From assembly GCA_951406725.2 (NCBI GenBank), contig OX597819.1, positions 100,068,001-100,132,000 of the forward strand: a stretch of 64,000 bases of DNA, in the 5' to 3' direction. This document shows, piece by piece, positions 13,245-63,560 of the stretch. How positions within the stretch are numbered: position 1 is the first letter of the stretch; each line of letters starts with the position of its first letter. Origin of the DNA: Octopus vulgaris (lineage: Eukaryota). The notes beneath the pieces were generated by a model. It was given only the letters and a program-made list of their open reading frames with translations, searched no databases and was not told the DNA's origin. The position numbers and the translations under genes are program-made.

Positions 13245-14270
13245 TTAGGTTCTCAAGAAAGTTCTTGCGGAATTTTTAATTTTGGTTTTAAATGGTGTAT
13301 TTTCAAATTAATTTTCGTTAAATTGCTTTGACTTTATGTATAATTTTAAAGCCCGTTTTTCGCTCTATCTAATCGTGTTACCCTTTTTCTTTTCGAATTA
13401 TTAGGTCATTCTTTCCAGAAAGTCGAATACAACATAGACAAAAAGCAAATTGGCGCAATTTTCTTATTCCAGTTCAATCAAGGTCGAAAAGCTGCTGAAA
13501 TAGCTCGCTATATAAACGATGCGTTTGGCCCAGGAACCACTAATGAACTTACAGCACAATCGTGGTTCAACAAATTTCGTAGCGGTTACGAGAGTCTTGA
13601 AGATGATAAGCGTAGTGATCGGCCATCGGATGTTGACAACGATCAACTAAGAACCTTAGTGGAAGCCATTCCACGCACAACTGTTCGAGAGCTTGCTACT
13701 GAATTAGATGTAACGTATACGTCAATTCCCAACAACTTCAAAAATACTTGATAAATTGGTGCCGTACGAATCGAACGACAACCAAAACGAAAAAAAATGT
13801 CATTTTGAAGTGTCGTCTTCCCTTCTTTTACGCAACAAGAACGGCTCGTTTCTCGACCGGATCGTGACCTGCTATGCAAAGTGGATTCTTTACGATAACC
13901 GGCGATGCTCAGCTCAGTGGTTGGACGCCGACTAAGCTCCACGGCACTTCCCGAAGCCAAAGTTGCAAAAAAAGAAGGTCATGGTGACTGTTTGGTGGTC
14001 TGCCGCCGGTCTCATCCAGTACAGCTCTTTGGATCTAGGCGAAACCATTACAGCGGCGAAGTACTGTCAGCAAATGGAGGAAATGCATAAGAAACTCCGA
14101 CAACAACAGCCAACATTGGTCAATAGAAAAGGACCAATTGTTCTCCACGACAACGCTCGGCCGCACGTCGCATAACTGATCCTACAGAAGTTGAACGAAT
14201 TGGGCTACGAAACTCTGCATCATCCGCTATACTCACCAGAACACTCGCCTACCTTCATCGCTTCAACGAC
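13245..14270 (+). pseudogene. degenerate mariner (DD34D-type) transposon, left TIR plus broken transposase
   Basis: TA followed by TTAGGTTCTCAAGAAAGTTCTTGCGG is TIR-like. Peptides seen: AAEIARYINDAFG..WFNKFRSG..LEDDKRSDRPS, FLDRIVTCYAKWILYDN, KKVMVTVWW, VLHDNARPHVA, HPLYSP. Stops and frameshifts are present. Confidence 0.9.
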
Positions 14271-22930: not shown

Positions 22931-24440
22931 TGTAGTAGTGTAGCAATTCTTAATTTCGTTAATACAGGAGGCTGAAAAGATTGACAGTATGTAGGATTTA
23001 CTCATGTAAGAACGAGAGTAAAGTATCCGTCAAAAGTAGCTTTATACATGAACCTGGCTGGTCAGCAGATATCCATGATTAAATACCATTTCTATACCTC
23101 GTTTTCATTCTAAAGCCTCGATTTCAACTGGCTGTAGTAATACAAACAGTAGTGAATTTAACATGTATAATTATAGCAATAATAACAGTAATTATTGCCA
23201 CTTTCTTCCCCGTTGAAAAATCTGAATACGACCCGGTGAGTTCGTAAAGTTCTTAAGCATCAAAATATAAGATGGGGCATTACGAAATTCTGGATATTTT
23301 ACGTCTTTCGACTTTACAAGTTGTATGAGTTTAGATGCTGTTGACCAGCCTTTCGGTTTCTCAAGTTGTGTGAGTGTAGACGCTGTTGACCAGCTTTCAA
23401 TTGCTCAAGAATATTAAGTATAGAGCTGTTAGTTTTTTGTTGAGGATCGATACCACTCGTTCCGGTTTCAACTGCCGGTGTTTGCCCGCGGTATCAAGCT
23501 CGGTCGGTGGACCGGGAAATTGCGTATCTCACCCGGAGCCAGATGTTTCAACGAAACATTTTCCTCCTTGCCGCTCGATAAGCGTACATGAGCGTACTGT
23601 GGATTGCATTCAAGTAATTCAACCTTTTCTACTACTAGATCGTATTGTGAGAACTGCTGTTGTTTCTTCAGGAACACAAGTTCACTCTTCAGTAAACATT
23701 CTCGTAGTGAGGTTACAAAAGTTGAGCGGCGGGGAAAATTGAACTGCTTCTCGTGAGGTTTGGTGTTAGTGACCGTACTGAGGAGGAGTGCAGAGCATCA
23801 ATGAATACGCGCTGCTAGTAACTCGCATTCAATCCCTCAGTCTTCATTGCCAAAGTAATGGTTTTCCATAAGGTTGAATAGAAGCTTTCAACTTGGCCAT
23901 TTCCCGCTGGATTGTACGGTGTCATCCTTCTGGTCGCTATGCCTTTATCATGGAGGAATTGTTTCAGTTCAGTTGAGATAACGACAGCGCCACGATCATA
24001 ATGGATGAAAGAAGGGCGTCCATAAATTGAAAATAATTGGCAGGAACATGCGACAGCATATGTAAAGTGAGAAAATTCATCGATAATTTTTTTTGACATT
24101 TTTTGAGAATAGTGGATGCGAGTGGGTCCTGGAAGTCTATACTTAATCTCTCGAACGGCTGAGTGGCCTTCAAAAGATTGGCTGTCGGTGGCACAAAAAA
24201 ATTAGACTTTAGTTCGGCGCATGTGGGACATTGAGGTGTCACAGATTTTATGTTATGGGTGGAAAATTGTAGATTCTTTGACCGCAGGAAATGGAGCAAT
24301 CACGCCATGCCTGGATGGCACAAGGAATTGTAGAGCTGTGTAAAGTCCATGGGGTTAGAAGATGATGTTCTTGAGGTAGGTCTACTTTCTCTTGTTTTTC
24401 TGAGAAACGCACAATTTGCGAGAAAGTGATAGAGCATATT
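22931..24440 (-). mobile_element. Gypsy LTR retrotransposon remnant: integrase plus probable 3' LTR (~22931-23200)
   Basis: Peptides CPTCAELK, PFERLSIDF, IIDEFSHF, IHYDRG, PAGNGQVES and NPQYAHVRL. A purine tract GGGGAAGAAAG precedes TG at 23200. The LTR limits are tentative. Confidence 0.85.
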
Positions 24441-28439: not shown

Positions 28440-29340
28440 ATGAAAGATTGCAAAGATTAAGCACTGTACAAGCAATTGAAAACCAATGAAACTGAAAATA
28501 GTTGGGTAAAGAAAAGAATACATGGAGAATTTCATAGAAATGTTGAAGATAAGACAGACAGAAAAAAGATGGTTGTGGAGGACTAAAGGTGATTTAAAAC
28601 CCGAAACGGAGGCTCTAATGTGTGCTGTCCTAGAGCAAGCACTAAGAACAAATTACATAAAACACAGAATAAACAATACATTAGAAAGTGATAAGTGCAG
28701 AATCAATGGACAAAATGGTGACACCATATGGCATATTACCAGTCAATGTACGCCTCTAGCGCAGAAGGAATATAAGAGACGCCACGATAATATGGCAAGG
28801 CTTGTCCATTGGACACCTCGTAACAAGTATGGACTTGACAGAGCAAAAACTTGGTACGACCATAAATCCGAACGCATCATCGAAAATGATAAAGCAAAGA
28901 TCCTATAGGATTTGATGATTCAGTGCGAACATGAGATAGAGAGTAGGAAGCCAGACATAGTGTTAATTGAGAAAGAAAGAAAACGATACTGAATCATAGA
29001 TATACTATGCCCAAGGTATGCGATAAGGTGGAAAGAAAAGTCGATATTTATGACAGGTTAACTTGGGATCTTAAGCAGTTTTGGTCGATGAAAAAGGTGG
29101 TAGTAGTATCAATAATTGTCGGAGCCCTTGGAATAGTGAGTAAAAATCTTGAGAAGTACATGGAACAAATATGGGATGCAATAAAGGTGGAGCACTTGCA
29201 GAAAACAGCACTGCTTAGAACTGCTCGAATACTCCGGAAGGTGCTCGAAAAATAATGGGTGTTACCTTAGTTCAGTGGTAATGAACAGCTGACACCGTAA
29301 TACATCTCTAGCGTTAGAAGCTGTGCAAAAGCAACAATAA
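28440..29340 (+). pseudogene. R4/Dong-like LINE 3' part (Zn-knuckle plus restriction-like endonuclease, 3'UTR)
   Basis: Peptides LKPETEALMCA.EQALRTNY, KCRI..DTIWHITSQC, YKRRHDN, RKPDIVLIEK, IIVGALGIVSK and LQKTALLRTARILRKVL. An AAT/GAT-repeat tail follows. Confidence 0.88.
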
Positions 29341-30668: not shown

Positions 30669-30799
30669 GTCCTTCCTCATCTGCCTTTTCGGTCCCGGAG
30701 GTTCCCCAACCTAGTTCGAGGAGCATAGACTCAAACCCACCTGAAGACCGTTGTTCTCCCCAAAAGAAGAAACGTAGTTAAAACTCCAGAGGGGCAGAT

Positions 30800-31552
30800 T
30801 TGGCTATGAAACCTGATCACGATAAAATCTGTTTGGATTCTCCTTCACTTGTCCTTCCCATTAATGCCATTGCTCAACCAATTCTGAACGATCTCGATGT
30901 GGGTTCACCTGGGGAGTGGTGCTCCCCCAAACCGAAGAAGAGGCAGTGCAGTTCCAAACCAGGCGGGAAAATTATGACCACTAAATCCATTCCGATCGAC
31001 CCCACAGGCCGACATAAGTCCGATGGCTATGAAACCACCCTTTCGAAATCCTCCAATGAAGAATCGAATACCGCAGCTCATAGTAGAGAACTTTTTGCCC
31101 ACTCAAGATCGGCAATAATATATGGCAATGCTGAATCCACCTGTGATACAGGCATAAACCGCCTAAAAGATGACATTAATTTTGTTTCCGTTTTGGTTGG
31201 AAAATTGTTCTCTGTGAACGAAAATGTCAGTGTTCTTAAGGTCGCTCGGCTAGGAAGATTCCAAGCGAACCCAACCGCAGATACTAGACCACGCCCAATA
31301 ATGGTAATCTTTTCTTCTGATCGGGAGTCTTCAGTCTTTCTGAACAGAGCTCAGACGCATGCCTGGGAGGACCCCAATATGGGTTTTCGCGAGGAATACT
31401 CACTAAGAGAGAGAATTCGCCGGAGGAACCTGATATCCGAGATAAAGATGAGGAAACAAATGGGAGAGAAGGGTTTACGAATCCAAGATGGACAGATAAT
31501 CAAGTCCTACCTCTGGTCCCATGCTGTAGTGCTCACAGGGAAAGTGATGTGA
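30800..31552 (+). CDS. LINE ORF1 protein, C-terminal part
   Basis: Motifs SAIIYGNAES, VARLGRF, RPRPIMVIF and FREEYSLRERIRRRNL match CR1/L2-type ORF1 C-termini. The frame stays open upstream to ~30671 except for one TAA at 30779. Confidence 0.8.
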   Translation: MAMKPDHDKICLDSPSLVLPINAIAQPILNDLDVGSPGEWCSPKPKKRQCSSKPGGKIMTTKSIPIDPTGRHKSDGYETTLSKSSNEESNTAAHSRELFAHSRSAIIYGNAESTCDTGINRLKDDINFVSVLVGKLFSVNENVSVLKVARLGRFQANPTADTRPRPIMVIFSSDRESSVFLNRAQTHAWEDPNMGFREEYSLRERIRRRNLISEIKMRKQMGEKGLRIQDGQIIKSYLWSHAVVLTGKVM

Positions 31553-32658
31553 GGGCAAATCGAAGTGAAGTTGATACCCCCGTCAACGATGCTATCTCTG
31601 ATGCCCTTTATTCTGCTTGTTCCCCAACTCCCGCCCCTCAGACTTCACAGCTCAGCATCGTCTACACCAACTCGTGCTCCTTATTCCCAAAGTTCAGTGA
31701 ACTATTTACACTGGCCCTACGCGACTCCCCTGATGTGATAGCTATCACCGAGACTTGGCTGACTCCAACAGTAAAGGACTCAGAGATCCACTTGCAGGGC
31801 TACGTCCTTTTCAGATGTGACAGAGGAAAACGGCGAGGTGGAGGTGTTGCTGTGTATGTTAAGTCTGAGCACAAACCGTCCTGCGGTATTCTACCCACAA
31901 ATGCTCAACCTACAACCAAATTCGATGCCGTCTATTGCAAGCTGAGCCTATCTGAGTTTTGCCTGCCCGTGTTGGCTGTCTACAGGCCGCCTCTAGCCGA
32001 CCCCCAGGACGATGCTCATCTACTCGAAGCGATAAGATTCGTTTCAGCTTCGCATGACTGCTTGGTACTAGGCGACTTCAACGCTCCCACGATCGATTGG
32101 CCCGCATCAATTTGTACAACATCTTCCCGGTTCGGCCAGGCCCTTCTTGACGTGGCTGAAGATTGTTTTCTATCGCAACATGTTGAATATCCGACAAGGC
32201 ATCGGTCTGGGCAGCAGCCATCTATGCTAGATCTGGTATTCTCCCGCTATCCAAGATCAGTGTCAGACGTATCTGTGTGCGCCCCTCTTGCCAAGAGTGA
32301 TCATGCGGTCCTGAAGTTCGTCATGCACACAACTTTTTCCACGCCCACGATTACTTCGCTGCCACGTAGAGTCTTCTCTGCAATTAATCTTGAAATTCTA
32401 ATCGAGGCTTCCGCGCTTCTGGACTGGCGTTCCCTGATGACGTTGTCCTCAGTTGACGAACTATGGTCATCCCTCAAAGCATATGTAATCTGTTTGACTG
32501 ACCAGGCAGTTCCCGTTGGACTTCCCAAGAGGAAGAAGGTTAAACGAAGAAGGTTAAACGAGAACGTCGACTCAGAGATATTGCTTGGGCTGAATTCAAA
32601 AATCTGGATTCGACTGCAGCTTTTGAGGTGTACAAAACTCAACGAGACCGAGCCGTGA
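31549..32658 (+). CDS. LINE ORF2 N-terminal apurinic-like endonuclease (frameshifted near 32546)
   Basis: Motifs YTNSCSL, IAITETWL, GGGVAVYV, VYRPP, LGDFNAP, LDLVF and SDH. Confidence 0.92.
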   Translation: MRANRSEVDTPVNDAISDALYSACSPTPAPQTSQLSIVYTNSCSLFPKFSELFTLALRDSPDVIAITETWLTPTVKDSEIHLQGYVLFRCDRGKRRGGGVAVYVKSEHKPSCGILPTNAQPTTKFDAVYCKLSLSEFCLPVLAVYRPPLADPQDDAHLLEAIRFVSASHDCLVLGDFNAPTIDWPASICTTSSRFGQALLDVAEDCFLSQHVEYPTRHRSGQQPSMLDLVFSRYPRSVSDVSVCAPLAKSDHAVLKFVMHTTFSTPTITSLPRRVFSAINLEILIEASALLDWRSLMTLSSVDELWSSLKAYVICLTDQAVPVGLPKRKKVKRRRLNENVDSEILLGLNSKIWIRLQLLRCTKLNETEP

Positions 32659-34427
32659 AAATTGAAAAGAAAGAACGCTTCAGTTATGAATACAAAATCG
32701 CAGCAAATGCCAGTAGCAATCCAAAAACCTTCTTTGCCCATGTCCAGCGGAATTCCCGCTTGAACAACCAGATTGCAACGTTGGTAGGCTCAACAGGCGT
32801 ATCGATTGAGGACCCTTATAAACAGAGTCAATTATTTGCCGAGGCTTTTTCAACTATTTTCAAACAAGATGATGGTCGTGAACCCCCTCCATTTGATAGA
32901 TCGGTACCTCCAATGCTTCGATTGATCATCACGCGGGACCAAGTCAAACGTGTTATTCAAGGCCTCGATGTCAACAAGGGTCACGGCCCTGACGGCATAC
33001 ACCCACGGGTTATCAAAGCGTTGGCTCCGGTCATCTGCGAGCCCTTAACACGACTATTCAATATGTCATTGGCGACGGGTGTTATACCTGCAGACTGGAG
33101 AACAGCGATAATCTGCCCAATTTTCAAGAAAGGGAGCCGCGAAGACCCGCTTAACTACCGACCGGTTTCCCTTACATCAATAATCAGCAAGATGTTCGAA
33201 ACCATCCTTAAGAAAAGTATGATGCTCCACCTCCTAAACACAGCCTCGATCACTGATTCCCAACACGGCTTCGTGCCGAAGAGATCATGCTTGACCAACT
33301 TACTAGTAATGGAAGAATTGGTGACGCGCATCCTCGAGGATAGTGATGCTGTTGACATCGTTTTATTGGACTTTGCCAAAGCTTTTGACTCGGTAAACCA
33401 CCGCCTACTACTTGTCAAGCTTCAAACATATAGTTTCCATCCGGATATTGTACGATGGGTTGGTGCCTTCCTCTCAGATCGCTCCTTCCAAGTTCAAGTT
33501 AATGGTTCGCGGTCCGACGTCTCCAGTGCGAGCAGTGGCGTGCCTCAAGGTTCAGTGCTTGGGCCCTTGTTGTTCTTAGTCTTCATAAATGACTTGCCCG
33601 ACGACCTCACGCAACACACCCTTCTATTTGCCGACGATATCAAACTGGTCGCTCCTCGCGGTAGTATAGAGGATCTTCGTCGATGCCTCCACCAAATTTG
33701 GAAGTGGTCTAACGATTGGGACCTGTGTCTGAACGTGTCAAAGTGCTGTCATCTGACTGTCGGCTCTACTCCTGCAACTCAACTTGATTTCGAGCCGGGT
33801 CGTCTGCTGCTGGAGAGGACCGATCAGGTAAAGGACCTGGGTATCTTGGTGGATTCCTCCTTTTCGCCTTCGGCCCAGTGCGTCCATGCTGCCAACAAAG
33901 CGCGCGGAATTCTGTTTTTGATTCGACGGTCATTCGGAATGCTCACAGCAGCCATATTCCTGCCACTCTATGTCACGCTGGTGAGACCCATATTGGAATA
34001 TGGGATTCAAGCCTCTTCTCCTTATCTCTTCAAAGACATACAGCACCTCGAAAGAGTCCAGAGGCTGGCTACCCGCATGGTTCATGGTCTCAAAAATTTG
34101 TCCTACGAAGAAAGGCTGAGGACGCTCGACCTTTGTTCTCTTGAAAAACGCCGCCGCCGTGGTGATCACATTCTCGCCCACAACATCATAAGCGGGAAGT
34201 GTAGCCTCTCGAAAGAGCTGTTCTTCACTCCTGCTCCGGAGCGTCGGCTGCGGGGTCATTCCGAAAAGCTCTACCTGCGACGATTTCATCTCAATCGAAG
34301 GAGAGGAGCTTTCTCCATCCGGGTTGCGGATCCGTGGAACAAGCTGCCAGACGAGATGGTGAAGATGCCGACGACCGCTTTGTTCAAAGCCTCCTTGGAC
34401 CTCAAGTGGCCTGAACTCTTTACATGA
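32560..34427 (+). CDS. LINE ORF2 reverse transcriptase and C-terminal domain
   Basis: Motifs GPDGI, PIFKKG, NYRPVSLTS, QHGF, DFAKAFDSV, GVPQGSVLGPLLF, LFADD, KDLGI, LERVQR, LRGH and WNKLP. No stops. Confidence 0.95.
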
Positions 34428-34519
34428 ACACCACCCTGTACTTAACTCCATGTCCCCCTACATGGCCTTGCTATTTGCTTTTGAGCCAAATTAACTAACT
34501 AACTAACTAACTAACTAAC

Positions 34520-35025
34520 CAAAAACAGCATTAAAAAAAACAAGATAATCATGACATGTATTGTTGCTCTTAGACAGGTCTTAAGAAATAAGGGAAATTA
34601 CCTAACAACTTTAAGCAACCTCATCTATTCTACTGTTAAAGTGGTAACTGTTCAACTAGGTTTCATGGCGACACGGAAAAGGACAAACCATGTCAATAGG
34701 CCTCCTAATTGGAAAGAACCAATACAAAAAGAGATCGAATTTTTGCGGGCGGATGAACAGACTAGAGGGGTAAGTATTAAAATGAAACAAACTAGAAAAA
34801 TCAAGCAAAAATATATAATCAAAGATTTTATAAACCTCCCTGCATCCAAGGAACTAGTGAAACAGCGAATAAAGCTGAGAGCCCAACTGCTTTGAAGGTA
34901 TGTTAAAAGAATCAAATTTTATCGACAAAACAAGGTAAATTGGCAAAAGTAAGATAGAAGTAAAGGAACCACCTAAGACTGCGGAAATGAAAGAGTTCTG
35001 GAATAAGATATGGAGCAGCAAAACA
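34520..35025 (+). pseudogene. continuation of the R4/Dong-like LINE N-terminal region after the CR1 insertion
   Basis: LSNLIYSTVKVV, RPPNWKEPIQKEIEFLRAD, KQRIKLRAQLL*RYVKRIKFYRQNK and EMKEFWNKIW. Confidence 0.7.
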
Positions 35026-35295: not shown

Positions 35296-36572
35296 ACAAC
35301 ACACACACACACACACACATGCACACACATAAATACTTACACACACTCGCATGCATTCATAGATATATGCATACATACATAGTACGTACATACATAGTAC
35401 GTACATACATACATACATACATAAATACATATACATACACTCATACATACATACACACATACATATATACATACACACATACATACATACATACGTACGT
35501 ACTTACGTACATACATACATACACACACACACATACATACATACATACATACATACATACATACATACATACATACATACATACACACACACATACATAC
35601 ATACATATATACATACATGTTTAGGGAGAGTAGAAAGAAAACACGGTGAAGATAGTATTGCTTACGGTGTAAAGCAGGTTGACTATAAAAATAACTTAAT
35701 TTGCATGAGACAAAGAGAGAATGTCAATGAACTATCGTAGCGACAACAACAACAGCAATAACAACGACAACATCGTCAAAATCCTCGATAGCAGTAGCAA
35801 CAGCAGCAGCAGCTACGACAACAACACAAGCATCAAAAACATTATTGATTGTTTTTTAGAGGAGTAAACAGAAAGAGAAAAAATTATTACTATATTAAAT
35901 AATCGTCATGTGATATGGCTGTAGCTGTATTTGACGTGTAAAATGGGTAGGACAAGAAAGGAAGACTTGAAAACATCTTTGAGAAAGATAGAAATTTATC
36001 ATAGAGGAAATGATGGAAATGTTAAGTGTGAACTGCAGGACTAATTGAGACATTGTTTTTTAGAACTTGTTGCTATACACTTTATGGTTGGCGTGATTGC
36101 AGTAGAGATATGAAGAAACGTACCGTCGTTACGGTGAATTACACTGTTGACGAATTCTTGATCAATAGAAGAAAACTCCCGTTATCTGAAGAAGGAAAAT
36201 AAGACCAACAAGAATAATAATTATGAATTCTTTATTTACCTCAAAATGTCAGAAATACAATATCACTGATATACACACCACATACAACTATTTTGCTATG
36301 TTCGCACGCGTACAAGCACGCACGGAAACACACACACACATACATACATACATACATACATTCATACATACATACATACACACAGACATACATACATGCA
36401 TGCATGCATACATACATACATACATACATACATACATACATACATACATACATACATACATACATACATACATACATACATACATAGGCACGGGCGGAAG
36501 GACGTACATAATGGTTTCTAGATGAAACACAACGCCATCAATTCCGAGAAAAAGAATGAGTTGCTTACACTG

Positions 36573-36757
36573 AACCTAGCATTTGATAGGTACTTTATTT
36601 TATCGACCCTATAGAAATGAAAGGTATTGCTGACCTTGGTGTGATACGAATTCAATATTAAAAATGCGGAACAATCACCGCAAGATATTTTGTCCAACGC
36701 TCTAATGATTCTCCTAGTCCACCGCCCTGTGCATACGTACATAATGTGAACATACGA

Positions 36758-36837
<80 letters not shown>

Positions 36838-37024
36838 TGCTCATATGTTCACATTATGTATGTATGCACAGGGCGGCGGACTAGGAGAATCATTAGAGCG
36901 TTGGACAAAAATCTTGCGGTGATTGTTCCGCATTTTTACATATTGAATTCGTATCACACCAAGGTCAGCAATACCTTTCATTTCTATAGGTCGATAAAAT
37001 AAAGTACCTATCAAATGTTAGGTT
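36573..37024. repeat. ~450-bp fold-back palindrome (duplicated degenerate SINE plus flank) centred on (TA)n
   Basis: 36573-36760 is the reverse complement of ~36838-37024, with about 7 differences counted by eye. Confidence 0.95.
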
Positions 37025-37076
37025 TATAATCCAGAAACATGATGTTCACAGATAACCGCCAGACTCCCTTTTTCTT

Positions 37077-37234
<158 letters not shown>

Positions 37235-37263
37235 ATATAAGAAAAAGGGAGTCTGGCGGTTAT

Positions 37264-37374
37264 CTGTGAACATCATGTTTCTGGATTATAAACATATTGA
37301 ATATATATTCCATATATTTTTGATATATATTTCATATATATTGCATATATATTTCACATCCTTCTTCAGCACAG
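37264..37374 (-). ncRNA. type I hammerhead ribozyme-like motif, copy 1
   Basis: Reverse complement of 38076-38186. Confidence 0.55.
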
Positions 37375-38075
37375 CTTTCCATTGAAAAAAATTTATCATA
37401 GATTTATCAAATGCTACGTACCTCAAACCTTCTGACCATGCGACATCAAAATATTTGAAGAAAGTGAGCAAAGGCTAAACCTACATAGACGTTTGAATTC
37501 ATAAATCTTCCCTCCAAAATTTTGCCATGCGCATTACAGTTAGGTTGTCAAAGGGAGTGAAAAATCCAAATAGTAATATAATGATAAGAGTAAATAATTT
37601 CTATAAAGGCTTTTAAAAAAACACCAATTATTTACTGGTAGAATTCGGTATGTAAATATAGCCGATTACCGGCAGGAACTTCTGTAAAGTTCAGTATATA
37701 TATTGTATATAAGAAAAAGGGACAGGCAAAACAGGTTGCTTGACCGCATACCGAAAAAATAGAAATAGCAGTCAAGAATGCTTATTTCTATCAAAGTTGG
37801 ACTCCGGGCATGACAGACCCTGTAATTCACATATGCAAAACAGAAGGAATAGATAACGAATACTATCATTATATTACTATTTGGATTTTTCACTCCCTTT
37901 GACAACCTAACTGTAATGCGCATGGCAAAATTTTGGAGGGAAGATTTATGAATTCAAACGTCTATGTAGGTTTAGCCTTTGCTCACTTTCTTCAAATATT
38001 TTGATGTCGCATGGTCAGAAGGTTTGAGGTACGTAGCATTTGATAAATCTATGATAAATCTTTTTCAATGGAAAG

Positions 38076-38186
38076 CTGTGCTGAAGAAGGATGTGAAATA
38101 TATATGCAATATATATGAAATATATATCAAAAATATATGGAATATATATTCAATATGTTTATAATCCAGAAACATGATGTTCACAG
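38076..38186 (+). ncRNA. type I hammerhead ribozyme-like motif, copy 2
   Basis: Reads CTGTG | CTGAAGA | A GGAT..~70 nt..ATCC A | GAAA C ATGAT GTT | CACAG. Stem I is CTGTG/CACAG, the core is CUGANGA...GAAA, stem III is ACA/TGT and the cleavage triplet is GUU. Confidence 0.55.
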
Positions 38187-38483
38187 ATAACCGCCAGACT
38201 TCGTATTCGTTATCTATTCCTTCTGTTTTGCATATGTGAATTACAGGGTCTGTCATGCCCGGAGTCCAACTTTGATAGAAATAAGCATTCTTGACTGCTA
38301 TTTCTATTTTTTCGGTATGCGGTCAAGCAACCTGTTTTGCCTGTCCCTTTTTCTTATATACAATATATATACTGAACTTTACAGAAGTTCCTGCCGGTAA
38401 TCGGCTATATTTACATACCGAATTCTACCAGTAAATAATTGGTGTTTTTTTAAAAGCCTTTATAGAAATTATTTACTCTTATC

Positions 38484-38534
<51 letters not shown>

Positions 38535-38929
38535 GATAAGAGTAAATAATTTCTATAAAGGCTTTTAAAAAAACCCCAATTATTTACTGGTAGAATTCGG
38601 TATGTAAATATCGGTATTTATTTACATACCGAATTCTACCAGTAAATAACTGGGTTTTTTTTAAAAGCCTTTATAGAAATTATTTACTCTTATTATTATA
38701 TTACTATTTGGATTTTTCACTCCATTATGACAACCCAATAGTTCCCAATCTTATGGAACTATTTTTGTAGTGCGCATGGCAAAATTTTGGAGGGAAGATT
38801 TACGAATTCAAACGTCTATGTAGGTTTAGCTTTTGCTCACTTTCTTCAAATATTTTGATGTCGCATGGTCAGAAGGTTTGAGGTACGTAGCATTTGATAA
38901 ATCTATGATAAATCTTTTTCAATGGAAAG

Positions 38930-39042
38930 CTGTGCTGAAGAAGGATGTGAAATATATATGCAATGTATATGAAATATATATCAAAAATATATATGAAATA
39001 TATATTCAATATGTTTATAATCCAGAAACATGATGTTCACAG
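38930..39042 (+). ncRNA. type I hammerhead ribozyme-like motif, copy 3
   Basis: Core and stems match copy 2. Differences are confined to the AU-rich stem II loop. Confidence 0.55.
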
Positions 39043-39207
39043 ATAACCACCAGACTTCGTTTTCGTTATCTATTCCTTCTGTTTTGCATATGTGAATTAC
39101 AGGGTTTGTCGTGCCTGGAGTCCAACTTTGATAGAAATAAGCATTCTTGACTGCTATTTCTATTTTTTCGGTATGCGGTCAAGCAACCTGTTTGCCTGTC
39201 CCTTTTT

Positions 39208-39292
<85 letters not shown>

Positions 39293-39391
39293 CTATATAC
39301 ACACACAGACGTATACACTCACAGATATGCACCTAAATATCGCATTAAGGAAATGTACAAGACAGGGTGGTCTTCTCACTCCTGTGATATT

Positions 39392-39429
<38 letters not shown>

Positions 39430-39712
39430 AGTGTGTGTGTGGCTATGGTTACATTGCTACACAAAATGTGGAAACAGGAGCTGAGAGTTACTATAAGATT
39501 TCGAATCGGCGGAAACCTTTTTAACATGGATAATCTGACTGTCAGCACTAAATCCGGATATGAAGAGATCATTGAAAAGCCTTAATTCACAATCCTGAAG
39601 CCCTATAAGCAGCCTTCTAAGTAGCTGTTACAATTTTTTTAAAAAATGGACCTAACACGCCAGAGAATTGAAGTGATCTGCCACATTCTCTCATCAATAT
39701 TTTCACGGTACA

Positions 39713-40107
39713 AGGCGGCGAGCTGGCAAAATCGTTAGCACGCCGGGCGAAATGCTTAGCGGTATTTCGTCTGCCGCTAATTTCTGAGCTCAAATTCCAC
39801 CGAGGTCAACTTTGCCTTTCGGGGTCGATTAAATATGTACCAGTTACGCACTAGGGTCGATATAATCAACTTAATCCGTTTGTCTGTCATTGTTTGTCCC
39901 CTCTGTGTTTAGCCCCTTGTGGGTAGTAAAGAAATAGGTATTTCGTCTGTCTTTGTGTTCTGAGTTCAAATTCCGCCGAGGACGACATTGCCTTTCTTCC
40001 TTTCGGGGTCGATAAATTAAGTACTAGTTGCGTACTGGCGTCGATCTAATGGACTGGCCTCCTCCCAACAAAACCTCGGACCTTGTGCCTAGAGTAGAAA
40101 AGGATAG
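39713..40107 (+). mobile_element. family-1 SINE, complete dimeric copy with TSD
   Basis: Head AGGCGGCGAGCTGGCAAAATCGTTAG, two B-box/central-domain units, tail CCTTGTGCCTAGAGTAGAAAAGGA. TSD is TTTCACGGTACA (39701-39712) / TTTCACGGTGCA (40108-40119). Confidence 0.9.
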
Positions 40108-42106
40108 TTTCACGGTGCAGCAAAAAATAATATCGCGTTCTCATTTCACTGATTTAGGCATCATAATTTCAAGTAGCTACATTCTAAACAAGACGATGAA
40201 CCACCCCAGACAAATAGTTCGAAGGATCAAAGGGAGAGATTTATGATCGTTCACTCTGCCCGCTTCCACACCTTGGCTCTCGTCTTCTCAGGTAGCTGTT
40301 TCCATTACACGCCACATACGTTCAACACACTGATGGCCCGCCAGGTCTATGATTTCCGTTACATACAAAAGATCCTGATGATAGAGGATTAGACGATAAA
40401 AAATCACCCATCGAATCATTACTAGTAACATTAAACCCACATTATCTAGAATATCACCAGAGATGGCTCGGGCATGTAGTGCACATATCTGACGCGCTTC
40501 TTTCTCTGAGGCTCCTCCACTGGCAGCTATATCGTGGTTGTTGCGTAGCTGGAGAGCCACTATCATAATTTCAACGACGAGCAGTTTAATATTATTTTAT
40601 ACAGGAATAACATCAACGTTTCAAGAATGGAAAATATCATTGCTAAAAAATTGATTTAGAGAGGCATTGAGAATATATAAGAATCAATACGTAGAATTAA
40701 TACAAGTTCCATTCACAAATGGAGATGTATATTGAAATATGTAGTCATCAATAAACCCACAATTGAAGAAGATAACATTTTAATTAGTTGGAAAGTCATT
40801 AACATTTATAGCTCTATATAGCATACGTAACATAGATTATTTATTCTAGTATATTCTATCTCATTATTATAATTTATTCTAAATTTCCCAAATATTTACG
40901 TTAATTATTTGAATCGGCATTTTCGACTCAATAGACTTTTGAGGAAAAAGGCAGCTTGCAGTTTGTACAATACTAGAAGGAGGGAACAATTGCCTTCTCG
41001 CTTTGAAATCTTTGCGGTTTTGCGGTGATGTTCTTTGCACTTGGTAATGCTTAGGGAATTCTTCCAGGCGGTTAAAGCAGTCGTTCTCACCTATTCAACT
41101 GTAGCACAACTGCAAAGGAAGATATCTGGAGTTCCATGTTTAAAGGCTTTAGATGAGTAGGGGGTGGGTGGAGAAATGATAGGCACCTGCATACGAAGAT
41201 CATAATGGTCAGACACCTGTGTTCGATGACAGGAAGTGAAATGCAGTTTCCAGTAAGGATGATTACCGAGTAATCAATTAATGAGTAGATCTGAAGTTCC
41301 ATGATGCTCATGGACCAAAATTTGTAGTAATGTATAAAGACGGTCAAACGACTTCAGGGAAAAATTATTTGATGCTAAAGGATGGATTTGTTGGGAGGGC
41401 GATAACAACTATGCCGTGAAAATCAATGAGACATTCACAGATACAGTGAAGCAGTCTTATTAAATAGAGTGGTTAGGTCAGAATAGAAAACTATTTAGCT
41501 TTTCTATCATTATTTAGCGGGAAGAGTACACAGAAACGAAAGGATGGGTACACTGAAGAAGCCGGTGATCGTGACTTTATTGAGAACCATGGTGACATGC
41601 ATACATAGTAAAATTTGCTTGAATGAAAACTGACGTTGATTAGAAACAGTTCAAAGTGTATTAGAGACAATAAGATGAGCATAGCGGAATTGAGAAAAGA
41701 TATATGGAGAGCATTTCTGTAAATGTTTCACGATAGCAGAAGCATATGATACTTTTCAGCTATATGGTGGAATATAGTGAATAGCCTGAACAGAAGACAT
41801 TAGTCAATAATCGAAAACGAAGTTCTTCTATTGATGACAGAGATGTGATTTGTGGTTTGCATGTTCGTAGTTGGTTTATGGAGAGATCAGAGCTGGACAG
41901 TACTCTTCGGATTTTGGTAAAGAGGACAGAGAATTAAACAGTGGATTAATTCAAAACCCGTGTGTTTCTCTGCATCACTTTATACATGTGAGTGTATGTT
42001 TCTAGCTGCTCAGAAATGTGAATGTATGAAAGCAAGTATGTTTGCATGTATGTAGGGGTGGTAATGTATGTATGTGAATTTGAATATAACATTAGTAATA
42101 TTAGTA

Positions 42107-45105: not shown

Positions 45106-45156
<51 letters not shown>

Positions 45157-49914: not shown

Positions 49915-50390
49915 ATTTTTTATTATTATTATTTTAAATCTTCTTCTGAGGAGGGAGCCGGTTTCCAACAAAGATACAAGGCTCCATCTTTGGGATGTAG
50001 TGAACAGACGCATTCACATTTGGAACTTGAGAAAAATCTTGCATATTTTTACTGTTCCACTCACATATTGGAATTGTAATGTATGAGTCAGCCGGTCAGT
50101 TTCTCTCTTTGAAAATCCCAGTTTATCCAGATTCTCTTTTAATCTTTTACTAAAAAAAACAAAAAACAAAAAAATAAAACCTAGTGCTCCAATTAATATT
50201 AGTATGAATATGAATTCATTGTCTCGATATAGAAGCTGGAGGTTTCGAAGCAGTTGTCCATAGATATCCTCTTTTCCTTTGATTTCCAAAGAGATATTTA
50301 TATCTGCAGGGCAGCTAACCTCTATGATGGTACATACCTTTGCCCCTCTGTTCCAAACAACAATATCCGGCCGGTTATGCTTACACTTGT
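49915..50390 (-). pseudogene. RLE-type (R4/NeSL-like) LINE 3' end with (TAA)n tail
   Basis: CKHNRPDIVVWN..CTIIEVSCPADIN..KEDIYGQL..ILIGALG..GTVKICKIFLKF, then a short UTR and AATAATAAT on the minus strand. Confidence 0.85.
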
Positions 50391-50639
50391 ATACATACAT
50401 ACACACATACATGCATACATACGTACATACATACGTACATACATACGTACTACGTGTGTATGTATGTATACATGCATGTATGTATGTATGTATGCATGCA
50501 TACATTATGCATATATGTATGTATGTATATATGCATACTTGCATGTATGTATGTATTATGATTCTATGTATGCAAGTATGCATGTATGCAAGCATGCATG
50601 AGTGCATGCTTGTATGTATGTAGATATGTTTGTATGTAT

Positions 50640-51400
50640 CTTATTTTATCTTCTTTTACTTGTTTTAGTAATTAGGTTGTGGTCGTGCTGCTGCACTCCA
50701 TTAAAATTTAGTGAAACCGATTGACCCCAAAACTTATAATCTCTTTTTCAGTATGATACTAATTCAATCGGTCTAATTTGCTGAACCATTAAGTTACTGG
50801 GATAGAGGTACGCCTACACCGGTTGTCAAACTGATAGTGGAAAATACTGACACAAACACACGCACGCACGCACACACACACACACACACTCACACACACA
50901 TACACACACACATATGGAGGGTAAGATATGTTTGTGTGGTAAGAGGTTTGCTTCCCAACCACAAATCCCAACCACAAGTGTCTTCTGCTATAGCCTCAGG
51001 CGGACAAAATTATTTTGTGTGGACTTAGTAGACTGAAACTGAGCGAGTCCTGTCGTATGTATATATTTATATGTGTATGTGTGTGTGTGTGTGACTCTTT
51101 GTGTCTATGGTTGTCTCCCACCACCGCTTGATAACCGGGGTTGGTGTGTTTCCTTTCCTGTAATTTAGCGGGTCGACCAAACCGTTCGGTAGAATACTAC
51201 TAGGCTTAAAACGAAAGTAATTACCGGGCCTATTAGTTCACCTCAAATTCCTTAAGGTGACACCCTTGATGATCGCTGTTAAGTAACAAAAAAAGTTAAG
51301 ATTTAGTTAAGCTTCAATGAACCAAATTCACTCGCAAGGTTTTGGTCGGGCCAATGCTATAGTAGAAGAAACTTCTGCAATGTGCCACGCACAATAACAG
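50640..51400. mobile_element. cluster of degenerate family-2 SINEs in both orientations
   Basis: Minus-strand 3' half at ~50650-50900, plus copy at ~50915-51300 (GTGTGGTAAGAGGTTTGCTTCCCAACCAC..), and a minus fragment at ~51310-51400. Confidence 0.7.
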
Positions 51401-56154: not shown

Positions 56155-56312
56155 TGTTGTACTTTATTTTAGTGTAACGTATAACCAGTAAATCCTGGTT
56201 CAAAGAAACTAATTTTATTCATAATCCTGTACGTTATTCCGAATGGCCGTTCTTTCTCTTCTTCTTCCTGTCAAATGCGCATGCTCTTTATATCAACGTT
56301 ATTTGCATAACA
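56155..56312 (-). repeat. 3' LTR (~158 bp)
   Basis: On the minus strand a PPT AGGAGGAAGTGAA is followed by TGTTATGC ... AATAAAGTACAACA. Confidence 0.7.
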
Positions 56313-59300
56313 TTCACTTCCTCCTAGAAAAAGAAGGGAAAAAATCATAGACCGAGGCTTTCCGAATCCTTTGTGATCGACACAGCTGAGGGGATTCTTC
56401 TTTTTGTTCCTGACGGTTATCTCTAGGAGGAGGAGAATTTTCAGTTGGCTCTCTGTCTGGCTCGTGAGGGACAAATGTTTGGGTTAGGTTACCAGTTAAG
56501 TTAATCTTCCCTGGTGATGTCAATTGTTTTGTGGATACTGTGGTTTCCCGATCGTCTGGGTAACGGACGTGAGCGTATTGGGTGTTGGCTTTCGGATAAA
56601 TCAACTTGGTCCACGATAGGGTCATAGTTGTTAGTGCAATTGTTCCTTTGAACATGCGCAGGTCCTGGGTTAAGAAGCCATGTTGGCATAGATGTTCCTG
56701 TTGCTGAACGTCTTTGATAGTTAAAAAGACGTTCATGTGGAGTGCCGTTAGTGGACGTACAAAGAAGAGACCTGATTGAATGGAACGTGTCTGGGAGAAC
56801 TGTTTCCCATGAAAATACTGGATGGGCACGGGTTTTCAAAGAGAGTGAGTAGTACTGACTTCCAAATAATGCCATTATATCTTTCTACTTGACTGTTCCT
56901 AGTGGGAGTGTATGATATCGTCCTACTCGTTGCAATGCCCTTACTGAGGAGCAATTTTCTCAATCTTGTAGACATAAAGGCAGTTCCACGAACTGAATGT
57001 ATATAACTGGGCATTCAAAAAACTGAGAACAAGTCTGTAAGACACTTTATTACAGTCTGAGCTGATGTCTCAGATACTGGATAACCAAACGGAAATTGAG
57101 AGTATTCATCAAATATTGTTAGGGGATAAGGATGTTTCATGGAAAGAATCGGAAGATTTCTACTGCGGAAGAAATGATGAAGGCGTACTACACCAGGATG
57201 GCACAGTGCAGCGTGTAACTCATAAAGTGAATATGAACTAATTGCTGAACAGCAGACCCATGTGAATGTATCCGGAGCGGTGTTGCTGAATCCTGGGCGA
57301 TTGTGAATATCATATGAGTTTGGAGATAATGCAGTGCGCAATCTCATAACTTTATCATTTTTAATTTCGCTCTTCGCTTTATAATTACACATGAATGCAA
57401 CAGAATGTTGATGAGTAATTAATGTAAAATGTCTACCTAGAAGAAAGTGTCTCCAATGAGGAATTGATTCAATAATTGCTTGGACTTCATTTTCAACTGA
57501 GGAGTGGTACTGTTCGCTAACTTGCAGCGTGCGAGAATGTAATGCAACTACTCTTCCATCATGATTTAGTGTCGCAGACATGGTAAAATCCGAAGCATCC
57601 ATCTCAATAGTAAATGGAATGTTCTCATCTATTACTTGAATGGCAGCATTGGCTAGTTGGAGCAAGCCTTTCTGGGTCAGGGCTGAAATACGGTATCCAA
57701 GAAAGTCAAGAGTTGTTGTCTTCATTCATGGTAAGCCCTTCACTCTTTGACGCAATTTCAAATTTTTCTAAATTTTTATCGTGGTCATTTTGATCTTTCC
57801 CACATATGGTTAAATAGTCTATGAATGGGAACGTATCTCGCAGCTTGTATTTACGCACGAAGTCGCCGATTCTACGTCGAAAACATGCGCTGCCGTTAGT
57901 TACTCCGAATGGTATTCTAGTATAATGCTATAATTTACCATCAGCTCCAAAGGCTGTGAATTGACGGTCTTTCTCTGATAGAGGAATCTGATGGTATGCC
58001 GAACGTAAGTCTATAGTACTGTAGGCTTTACACTTGGCGATAGTGTTCACTAACTCATCAATTTTAGGAAGGGGGTAGGCATCAAGCTGTGTATATTTGT
58101 TACTCGTCTCTGAGTGGTCAATCACTATTCTTCGCCTTTTTTTTTTCTTGAACAACTAACACTTGCGATCTCCAAGGGGAGTTACTAGCTTCAATAATGT
58201 TCGCATCTGCTAAGCGGCGTACTTCTGTCCTGATGAACTCTCGATCACGTTCCGAGTATTTTCGCGATTTGGCTGCAATAGGTTTACAGTCCTCTCTGAC
58301 ATGAGCGAATAGCTTTGGAGGATCAGTTTTCATAGCTGTTAGCACAGTAAATGTTAACGGTGGTCTCTGTCCGCCGTATTGTATGGTAATACTTTCATGC
58401 CGTTCTTGGAAGTCAGTACCCAGAATTAGGTCAGTGCACAATTTCTGAGCACGTACAGTTTCACATGGTAGTATTTCTGATTATTCAGGGTTATTGAAAC
58501 AGTGCAGTATCCCTTGGATTCCGCAGAAAGAGATGCAGAAGTCATACCAATGACGTTCTTCAATTTGACCGTCTTGATCTTGTGTAGCTTCTCACTGATG
58601 AAGCTCTTGTCAGAGCTACCGCTATCAATTATTGCTTCGGCTTTATAGCCATTGTTCAGTATAACCATGGTGGTTACTCGGAAGGCTGAACCTGCTGATG
58701 CTGATACTGCCAATGGCAAATCATATTTACCATCATCCTGTGTTACAGTTGCTGCGTTGCTCCTACATAGCTTTCCAAAATGTCCTATTTTTTGGCATTT
58801 GTGACAGACTGCTTTTCGCGTAGAGCAGTGAGTTCGCGGATGTCTGGAATAGCCACAAAACCAACATTGAGAGGGGTCTCTTTTTCGGGTCGCGGCAGAG
58901 TATTTTTCTTCCTGCTTTGGGGAATCTATTGGCTTAGCTACAATGGTGCAGTTGGACTGACGTTGGCACCCTCAGAGTTTAGAAAGACACTGGAACTCTG
59001 TTGTGCCACATCTAGTGAACGTGCTTGATCATAAGCTGTACTGAGGTCGTCACTTTTGTTTTCTAATAGTCTTTGTCGTATTTATAAATGCATCTCGGAT
59101 CATTTCGGACCGGTACTGCTCAGCACTCACTGCATCAAAGTCACAGTCTTTCGCTAATATTTTGAGTTCTTTGGTTTCTGTTTTCTTGTGGTTAAAAGAT
59201 GGCGTGCCATTACGATTTTCTTTGGTTTAATGTGCACACTTTTTTGTGTATTCACAGCTTGTTTGTAGTTCTTAGCTTCACTGATGAATTCGTATACGTT

Positions 59301-59403
59301 CGGTTTTACATAATTAATCAAAAGATTGAGTTTATCGGTAATCCTACCTTCCTGCCCTGGTAGTGAGTCTATAAAGTTGGTGAAAGTTGTAAACCAGTGA
59401 TTA
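56155..59403 (-). mobile_element. degenerate Gypsy LTR retrotransposon: gag-PR-RT-RNaseH-IN plus 3' LTR, 5' end missing
   Basis: Gag shows HWFTTFTNFI..ARHLL and two CCHC knuckles (CWFCGYSRHPRTHC, CHKCQKIGHFGKLC). Protease shows IIDSGS. RT shows SPWRSQV, DAYPLP, IDLRSAYHQI and PFGVTNG. RNase H shows MDASD. Integrase shows QVERYNG. There are many frameshifts. Confidence 0.95.
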
Positions 59404-59469
59404 ACAACACTAACTCCATTTGAAAGTAACATGTGAATTATTTGATCTTTGTAGAGAGTGGGCAACTGA

Positions 59470-60160
59470 GAAGAACATTTCCTTAAGTTGTGCACAAAAA
59501 TAGCTATCTTAGAACACAGGGGACATACAGAGGGTCCACCCAGCTCCGAGTAAATAAGTAGATGGTCTGAGAATAACATGATACACGCCACTAGCTCAAG
59601 AACTTGAGACCTTCTGGGTTCCACATCCAATGTAATTTCTGTTCACATTCTGCTCAATAACCTGCTCCTGCTTCAACCAGGCATCCTGCTTCAGCATTAC
59701 CATTGCTCTACTTGCCCGCTCTTCCTCCACTGATAATGGAACCTCTGCATACACCAGCTTCCGCCTATTTTTTCCAGCTAGCTGCAGAATATTAGCTTGC
59801 TGTCGAGCCTCTGAATCTAGCCGTGTCCCGTGCCACAATCTCAAGCATAGATTTGTCTCAACCGTTCTACTGCTCCTCGGACCGCGTTCACTGTCTTCTA
59901 CTAAATCCTTGTTCTCACTAAACTCTGCACCATCAACCGTAGGGTCCCAAGAACTTACGTGTTGCAGCTGTTCACGTAATCTCTCTCACAGAACTCAACG
60001 AGAGCCTGAGAGCGTTGCTGCTTCCTTACAGCGCGATACCTAACTCGGTGGAAAACCTGGCCATCTGCTAAGGTGGCTCTTGGCAATGTGCTCTAAGCGC
60101 TCAACTACTGTTATGGAAGAATTAGTAGACAAGTCAGACTATTCATAAGAAGATCCCATA
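59470..60160 (-). pseudogene. HERO-like RLE-type LINE fragment
   Basis: VERLEHIAKSHLSRWPGFPPS, RRKLVYAEVPLSVEEERASRAMVMLKQDAWLK, EPRRSQVL and PSVCPLCSK resemble the post-RT/Zn-knuckle region of HERO-clade elements (recognised from memory). Confidence 0.65.
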
Positions 60161-62575: not shown

Positions 62576-63560
62576 TTGGGTCATCCCACAAATAATGCAG
62601 CTTATTTATACTTCTTTTATTTTTCAAAATTGAATTGAACAAAGTTCTTTTTAATCTAAAATATACTCTCCTTCATTTTCTACACTGCTCTTCGATCTAT
62701 CTGGTAGAATCGCAAGGCCCCTTTTCCAAAATTCACTTGTCCGTGAAGAAAAATACTCCTCCAGTACTGTTGTAACCTTGTCTACAGCATTCATATTTTC
62801 TCCATTCAAATGATTTTGAAAACTGCGAAATAAATGATAATCAGATGGGGCAATGTCCGGCGAAGATGGTGAGTGGGGCATTGTTTCCCATTCAAACTGC
62901 TCTAGCCTTTGGAACGTCATGCTCGCTGTATGTGGCCGAGCGTAATCCTGATGGAAGAACACCTTTCGTATTGAAACCAAAGGTAGTCGTTTTTCTTCTA
63001 GCGCTGACTTAAGCCGCTCAAGCTACTCACAGTAGACCTCCTTTGTTATCGTTTGGTTTGAGTTTAAAAGTTCAAAGTGGACTAAACCTTTCATACCCCA
63101 CCAGACAGATAACATCAAGTTACGCAGATGAAGACTTTCTTTAACCCGGGGTGCCTGTGTTTCTCCTTTCCCTACCGACTGCCTTCGGCGCTTGCCATTT
63201 TCATAGAAAATCTATTTCTCGTCACCTGTCTCTATTCGCTCCAAAAATAGTTCATTCGGGCGACCTCCGCGCGATTACACTGGGTAAGTTTGTGATGAAC
63301 CCATTGATACAATTTGGTGACTATTTCGATGGCACGCAGGTGTTATAAAATCGTTGAATGATCGAATCGAAGCTTCACTGTAGGTTCCTTAACAATTATG
63401 ATAAGATTTTTTCCAGTAGAACTTGCGGGACGTCCTCGTCGAGCTCTACAAATCTTCCAGGACGACGCTTGCCTTCTAAACTAGTTTTTGGCTAGGAATT
63501 TCTGAAACCACCGTTGACACTAGTTTACGATTATTGTCCGATCTCCATATACTGCTTTAC
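62576..63560 (-). pseudogene. degenerate mariner transposon
   Basis: FHQDYARPH, HSPSSPDIAPSDYHLF and GEYILD*. TA followed by TTGGGTCATCCC is a TIR-like end at 62574. The far end is unclear. Confidence 0.9.

Follow-up and report, generated by a model that had tools for sequence, protein, structure and literature searches.

The locus occupies positions 36573-39299 of the 64-kb window (the whole stretch of Octopus vulgaris DNA that was analysed, 64,000 nucleotides) and consists of copies of a single unit on alternating strands, bounded by (TA)n tracts. Three of these copies are long, each in another circular phase, and two are short pieces. As reference we used the 616-nt unit at 37864-38479 (+; GC content 32.6%), numbered as u = window position - 37863; its first 11 nt are repeated at 38480-38490. 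On the unit circle the longest stop-free frames have 69 aa (+) and 85 aa (-), and every junction of the 616-nt circle is crossed by at least one copy according to the unit mapping. The long unit matches have BLAST E-values ≤ 1e-149, so the repetition is not due to chance, and no further copy was found by BLAST elsewhere in the 64-kb window.

The left half of the locus begins in host DNA with the left arm of a palindrome (host flank, 36575-36759, identified by BLAST), followed by (TA)40 (36760-36838), an inverted copy of the host flank (36838-37021, -, by alignment), a short piece (37022-37075, +) in which u294-337 is joined to u481 onwards and runs into (TA)n, thereby mirroring the end of copy 1 and including just the 3′ half of the predicted hammerhead described below, and an interrupted (TA)82 (37076-37239). 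In the middle, copy 1 (37234-37863, -) reads u340-616-1-337, jumps internally from u337 to u481 and continues as u481-497 into (TA)n; its main part (37250-37863, -) has 614 nt, i.e., one turn less 2 nt. The adjacent copy 2 (37864-38490, +) reads u1-616-11, i.e., one turn plus 11 nt (627 nt), and is followed by (TA)23 (38486-38531). The right half comprises a short inverted piece (38532-38611, -; u544-616-5 at 38534-38611), a 7-nt spacer at the head-to-head junction (38612-38618), copy 3 (38619-39215, +; u545-616-1-497), which ends in (TA)n at the end point of copy 1, and (TA)45 (39210-39299), beyond which host DNA resumes. Copies and short pieces were placed by unit mapping and the (TA)n tracts by tandem-repeat listing; the three inner tracts are also fold-back centres (BLAST), while (TA)45 is the right boundary and not a palindrome centre. 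Taken together, the locus is made of three blocks, each with two head-to-head arms whose outer ends are both (TA)n. This matches the insertion structure of a Penelope-like element (PLE), with two head-to-head pairs, a partial tandem, an inverted 5′-truncated copy and two recurring 3′ ends, and (TA)n adjoins every element 3′ end, as it does in insertion into (TA)n. A head-to-tail unit dimer is absent from the locus, the longest copy having 1.02 units.

Between copies 1 and 2, a single site out of 614 differs. Copy 3 is identical to copy 2 at 551 of 568 aligned sites (97%), the changes being 17 substitutions, 29 inserted bases and one deletion; the inserted bases include a self-contained 27-nt hairpin at u47 (38737-38763, +, from the copy 3 alignment), which sits at an internal loop of the long rod predicted for the unit. 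The short inverted piece shares the variant at u580 with copy 3 and those at u576, u581 and u4 with copy 2, and because of this mixture it probably comes from a third source copy. More than one source is indicated, as copy 3 is 3% diverged and has its own hairpin, yet carries identical frame-less junctions. The original prediction had described a non-coding unit of about 620 bp whose modules are permuted on both strands with all junctions of a circle present, together with a diverged copy 3 that has an extra hairpin and is possibly derived from another source, and all of this agrees with the present mapping, as do the strand switches at 37863/37864, in (TA)23 at 38486-38531 and at 38611/38619. 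Of the extent given there (37250-39280) the array itself stood, but the true start lies further left, at about 36573, with two more fold-backs.

Another reading is that the unit is not a family that propagates itself but stems from an ordinary coding PLE with fixed ends, either by a rare deletion or by the joining of its 3′ end to its 5′ end. Such an origin would account for the recurrence of two TA-joined ends, which resemble the start sites that define a 'tail' (PMC11167929), and most genomic hammerheads of the kind predicted below are truncated element ends (PMC4209133). It nevertheless looks unlikely, as no coding remnant is present at any junction and the sequence variants, which represent two or more source copies and probably three, all have the frame-less u616-to-u1 junction.

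Fold-backs at the (TA)n tracts and surroundings of the locus

The fold-back about 36760-36838 has a host-flank mirror of ~185 nt, and the one about 37076-37239 a mirror of ~58 nt. The arms of the host mirror differ by 4 substitutions and 3 one-base indels in ~190 nt (3 of the 4 substitutions at CpG, by eye), and its join with the element shows microhomology of a few bases. This host-flank mirror must be DNA-templated, and since the strand switch mirrors host DNA, it represents a DNA fold-back and is no evidence of a circle. Fold-backs and inverted duplications were also described at L1 target sites (PMC11702581). As a side observation, 36575-37021 forms a near-perfect host palindrome of ~450 nt centred on (TA)40, which would make a long RNA hairpin if transcribed; the Rfam miRNA look-alikes found at this palindrome were all below threshold.

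The host mirror is more diverged (7/190) than copies 1 and 2 are from each other (1/614; Fisher p = 0.0002, or p = 0.012 for substitutions alone), and despite this higher divergence the piece joined to it has the internal jump of copy 1. A single event does not explain the greater divergence of the mirror, which could stem from several insertions of different ages or from error-prone fill-in.

Mirror arms of at least 70 nt accompany 3 of the 31 (TA)12+ tracts in the window, and all three lie at the locus. Outside it, 25 of the 26 (TA)12+ tracts have no mirror and one has 19 nt; as mirrors of at least 70 nt are limited to the tracts of the locus, they are not a general (TA)n artefact. The lone mirrored tract outside is located at 45108-45151 (19 nt, 95%). 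(TA)n palindromes are error-prone in long reads, and both this and the three one-base indels in the host mirror would fit a fold-back artefact of the assembly or of long reads at these tracts. We find such an artefact barely plausible, given the unmirrored tracts outside the locus, arms that differ by CpG-type transitions, copies with distinct variants, and the 19 public runs described below, which support the unit and not its junctions.

Among the 24 public runs listed, the unit is present whole or in part in 20, and at least half of its 53 sampled words are present in 19. The runs that contain the unit belong to 10 studies and carry three organism labels, apart from one faecal metagenome, which shows that the unit exists in many individuals; copy number is not given by presence in runs. 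The RNA labels of runs rich in unit words are guesses, and the recorded RNA run (X20, share 0.21) was not used as evidence. Scans of sequence collections with a single short motif retrieved one metagenome contig (L001), one bacterial genome contig (L002) and no viral contigs. Both contigs match over 24-25 nt only, and were treated as chance hits and not as relatives of the unit. By eye, L001 has a tandem repeat with a period of about 30 nt at 961-1500.

The window as a whole is microsatellite-rich (142 tandem-repeat rows; GC content of 25-49% per 2 kb) and contains fragments of LINE, LTR and mariner elements. A LINE-type element is located at 30782-34427 (+), with an endonuclease frame at 31321-32658 (PF14529, PF03372), an overlapping 627-aa reverse transcriptase frame in another reading frame at 32544-34427 (PF00078), an upstream 256-aa frame with no Pfam match, and (TAAC)7 after the element at 34492-34519. 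Broken pieces of LTR retrotransposons lie at 56300-59700 and 23815-24201 (-), with an RNase H at 57015-57725 and an integrase fragment at 23815-24201. Mariner-type transposase fragments are present at 13350-13751 (+; PF17906) and 62651-63022 (-; by eye, with no Pfam match). Four fragments that by eye look like non-LTR elements with restriction-like endonuclease (28510-28908, +; 34515-34895, +; 50014-50640, -; 59596-59985, -) have a single Pfam match among them, a weak zf-RVT match below the cut-off at 28510-28908. In addition, a SINE-like dispersed repeat is matched 10 times in the window when the query is counted: it occurs at 39761-40090, as a tandem pair 176-184 nt apart, and in eight other places. 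We take this repeat to resemble a common octopus SINE; three of its motifs were searched in the literature and were not found.

Predicted hammerhead ribozyme and folding of the unit

A type I hammerhead is predicted from sequence pattern and fold in 3/3 long copies, at 37264-37374 (-) in copy 1, 38076-38186 (+) in copy 2 and 38930-39042 (+) in copy 3, where helix II is two bases longer (fold and descriptor). In copy 2, all on the + strand, the predicted helix I pairs 38076-38080 with 38182-38186 (5 bp) and is followed by the CUGANGA core (38081-38087), a helix II of 79 nt closed by G-C (38089-38167) with an unpaired A on each side (38088 and 38168), GAAA (38169-38172), a helix III of 9 nt (38172-38180) and the predicted cut after the U at 38181. 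U at the cut site makes a weak hammerhead triplet. An unconstrained local fold of 38064-38200 yields the three-helix, three-way-junction topology, and in copy 3 the ribozyme is present in the minimum-energy fold of the whole copy. The poor formation of helix I in context counts against hammerhead activity: its probability is 0.28 at 37 °C and 0.04 at 20 °C in the whole circle, and 0.00-0.06 in 4 of 7 linear contexts (37 °C), with 0.83 in the best local window.

An Rfam search of 36000-41000 with E-values up to 5 gave 53 matches, none to a ribozyme, all below the gathering scores and nearly all hairpin or microsatellite look-alikes; Rfam misses the predicted hammerhead because helix II is 79 nt long. 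The first hammerhead descriptor was post hoc and matched 0 of 20,000 shuffles of the unit. A looser descriptor took its rules from the Hydra/Chlamys table in File S2 of Craig et al. (PMC8557442), with a helix II limit of 100 nt, widened after the motif had been seen; it matched 7 of 10,000 unit shuffles and, in the whole window, the three long copies only. At the usual 35-nt loop limit the looser descriptor gave no match and the real motif was missed. The minus strand of the unit has no CUGANGA core, and a by-eye variant with a 7-nt helix II and a long helix III was dropped as its helix I cannot form.

The motif was compared, with counts made by eye, with the 26 rows of the published Hydra-clade table (PMC8557442), in which helix III has 9 nt in 20/26 rows, U stands at the cut site in 10/26, an unpaired base is found on both sides of helix II in 15/26, and helix II with its loop has ≤ 24 nt in all 26. 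The A.A opposition at the base of the unit's helix II is seen in 0/26 of these rows, while its G10.1-C11.1 pair and the extra base after A9 fit the PLE hammerhead consensus (PMC4209133). Judged by sequence, the putative hammerhead of the unit matches a Hydra-type core and helix III, with a far longer helix II. A literature search for hammerheads with a long helix II returned just 6-8-bp examples, from RNA viruses (PMC13725137).

Measured against 20 shuffles per strand, the unit folds far better than expected on the ribozyme strand (z = -5.6), and the opposite strand has z = -3.5. Of the 17 substitutions in copy 3, 9 are unpaired, 5 keep pairs and 3 break them (5.2 expected, P = 0.12), and there are no compensatory pairs among them. 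This set of substitutions beats 149 of 150 random mutant sets in energy, which we did not take to prove selection, since two copies that descend from a structured ancestor will also differ by what look like repairs.

Some features would also suit local DNA repair of a non-mobile sequence, through (TA)n cruciform breakage, fold-back and template switching, with the hammerhead arising by chance: the three inner (TA)n tracts are palindrome centres, host DNA is mirrored, and one locus is known in the 64-kb window. The scarcity of the hammerhead pattern among shuffles (just 7/10,000), the folding z of -5.6, the 3% divergence of copy 3 with its clean hairpin insertion and the mixed variants in the short inverted piece make this highly improbable.

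Template, recurring ends and proposed mechanism

We consider it probable that the locus arose by several insertions of a non-autonomous, retrozyme-like element that would use the reverse transcriptase and endonuclease of a partner, namely a (TA)n-targeting PLE most likely of the Hydra clade. Nearly every Hydra family has (TA)n as its insertion site, and the families listed include one from Octopus bimaculoides (PMC8557442); 31 Penelope-like families were counted as recently active in Octopus vulgaris (PMC13282606). A six-frame scan of the window gave no Penelope-type protein motif, and four 11-12-nt unit motifs were absent from the published Naiad/Hydra consensus file (PMC8557442) by motif search.

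TA-joined ends recur at u~492-497 (copies 1 and 3) and at u~5-11 (copy 2 and the short inverted piece), with ~130 nt between the two, compared with a usual PLE spacing of 30-40 nt. The sense circle has 9 UA runs of at least 5 nt, the longest of which (u500-508) is unused as an end, so that TA microhomology is not sufficient as the sole guide to the ends; the pairing state did not cleanly separate used from unused UA runs either. With AT-rich DNA, the purified Poseidon protein nicks the two strands and extends each of them, and on the RNA it has two internal starts that lie downstream of the hammerhead (PMC11167929), activities that fit the head-to-head arms and the two recurring ends.

In the mechanism that we propose, a tandem source locus elsewhere would be transcribed, the hammerhead would cut the transcript to monomers, and these would be ligated into a circle. 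The GIY-YIG endonuclease of the partner would nick both strands of a (TA)n tract, and each (TA)n end would prime cDNA from one or the other of two preferred starts inside the unit (u~492-497 and u~6-11), with synthesis ending after at most about one turn. Two cDNA arms joined head to head would give the (TA)n-arm-arm-(TA)n blocks, the self-complementary (TA)n end would at times fold back and copy neighbouring DNA, leaving the host-flank mirror, and one (TA)n tract would have been hit more than once.

A circular RNA template is favoured by copies of about one turn in different phases (614 and 627 nt in copies 1 and 2, with no copy longer than 1.02 turns) and by the predicted cut site being read through in all three long copies. 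Cleaved linear monomers would end at u319 and do not fit these read-through copies, and a long tandem transcript gives no reason for a stop after one turn. If stops were uniform, a stop within 3 nt of one turn would have a chance of ~0.011, a post hoc figure for copies 1 and 2, which may not be independent. The circle is nonetheless not established, as self-priming on the cDNA of copy 2 could yield copy 1 as well.

The same element could indeed have been copied from a linear tandem transcript or from new cDNA, with no RNA circle and the hammerhead as a passenger, a serious contender that we rate somewhat below even. Copy 1 could then be the self-primed second strand of copy 2, which would start at u340, jump at the 11-nt redundancy, stop at its own start and be captured at (TA)n. 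The single difference between copies 1 and 2 in 614 sites and the DNA fold-back demonstrable at the locus in the host mirror are in line with this, as are the self-priming proposed for Penelope palindromes (PMC3846280) and the behaviour of Poseidon, whose insertion is unaffected by ribozyme mutants and whose main substrate is uncleaved RNA (PMC11167929). On the other hand, copy 1 would need three template jumps, one of them lacking microhomology, and neither the length of copy 2 (one turn plus 11 nt) nor the fact that the diverged copy 3 ends where copy 1 ends is explained. Returning to the circular template, a fuller reading, which we offer tentatively and with some doubt, is that the unit may be a circular, rod-shaped 616-nt RNA with an active hammerhead that escapes standard searches owing to its 79-nt helix II, and the first SINE-like partner of Hydra-clade PLEs, whose one-turn copies in different phases would directly record reverse transcription of a monomeric circle and whose inverted arms would come from (TA)n fold-back.

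Comparison with known systems

Two other assignments were rejected. An autonomous Hydra-clade PLE would have a frame for a reverse transcriptase with a C-terminal GIY-YIG endonuclease, which is lacking in the unit and was not found in the six-frame scan of the window. For a tRNA-type SINE, there is no Pol III A/B box on either strand and the sense strand has several T5+ runs.

The Penelope insertions of Adineta vaga (Arkhipova et al. 2013, PMC3846280) resemble the locus in their head-to-head inverted ends, palindromic junctions, microhomology deletions, capture of host DNA, circularly permuted copies and trans action on non-coding inserts. They differ in that coding elements or end-flanked cargo are inserted and target-site duplications are frequent, and a flank mirror across a microsatellite was not met in the passages compared (PMC3846280). 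Inverted and partial-tandem copies, which the original prediction had ascribed to PLEs, are standard for these elements (PMC8557442, PMC3846280). For Poseidon PAc of Anolis (Frangieh et al. 2024, PMC11167929), nicking of both strands and two internal starts would likewise give recurring ends; unlike the unit it is coding, its starts bound a tail of 30-40 nt instead of ~130 nt, and neither (TA)n specificity nor a circle is shown in that account (PMC11167929).

The Hydra-clade PLEs, including Hydra-1_Obim (Craig et al. 2021, PMC8557442), share with the unit the (TA)n target and inverted truncated copies, as well as the 9-nt helix III, the frequent U at the cut and an unpaired base flanking helix II. 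In contrast, helix II with its loop has 79 nt in the unit and ≤ 24 nt in this clade, the unit's A.A corresponds to U.U or U.C in Hydra, and the TA-joined end of the unit lies ~170 nt past the ribozyme instead of 30 nt in Hydra-1_Obim (PMC8557442). No sequence in common with the unit was seen by motif search in the consensus file or by eye in the 3′ end of Hydra-1_Obim (PMC8557442). The 'half-core' hammerheads of Naiad, including Naiad_Ovul (PMC8557442), also go with a (TA)n target, have core halves far apart and are missed by standard descriptors; their halves are 35-50 nt apart and were reported as not fitting the hammerhead fold, whereas in the unit 81 nt separate the halves and each of the three helices is able to form. 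In sequence, the unit's motif appears to fit the Hydra rows better than Naiad, which lacks a canonical hammerhead and has an N-terminal endonuclease; the partner may nevertheless be a Naiad.

The unit also resembles the non-LTR retrozymes (PMC7229834; 10.64898/2026.07.22.740005), which are non-coding, have a GC content < 45% (32.6% in the unit), are circularly permuted, contain one type I hammerhead per unit (predicted here), and are presumably mobilised by PLEs, a source that was proposed and partly shown (10.64898/2026.07.22.740005). Their families range from 51 to 972 bp (10.64898/2026.07.22.740005), which includes the 616 nt of the unit. According to the original prediction, a large retrozyme-like element had entered (TA)n sites as a copy of a circular or multimeric template, and no hammerhead of the unit was named; the type I hammerhead predicted in each long copy supplies the missing piece, and one of the kind known from (TA)n-targeting Hydra-clade PLEs, while 'large' has to be withdrawn. 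The unit differs from these retrozymes in the inverted, (TA)n-anchored copies at the locus, the lack of a head-to-tail dimer and the 79-nt helix II, and it is known here from sequence alone. Li et al. (10.64898/2026.07.22.740005) require of a non-LTR retrozyme that two or more units, each with a complete hammerhead, follow one another head to tail; we do not file the unit under this name because its copies are not consecutive in this way, its cleavage is a prediction and its circle a proposal. Among Xenopus retrozyme dimers, 8 of 9 were without cleavage in vitro (10.64898/2026.07.22.740005). A search of listings of the open literature found no octopus or cephalopod retrozyme and no non-autonomous Hydra-clade partner, and the unit family may already be catalogued without its ribozyme, e.g., in Repbase or the O. 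vulgaris repeat library.

How PLEs make tandem and inverted insertions, and whether their template is an RNA circle, are open questions (PMC8557442, PMC4209133). A short non-coding substrate with one-turn copies in different phases and two defined starts would allow tests of the circle model in vitro and through a census of genomes. Without a circle, the unit is one more non-autonomous Penelope derivative; if a hammerhead with a 79-nt helix II works, descriptors and Rfam miss a class of motifs that possibly includes the 'half-core' motifs of Naiad. The kind of element is known; what is new is the length of helix II, the presence of a Hydra-type core in a unit that is non-coding, and copies of one turn.
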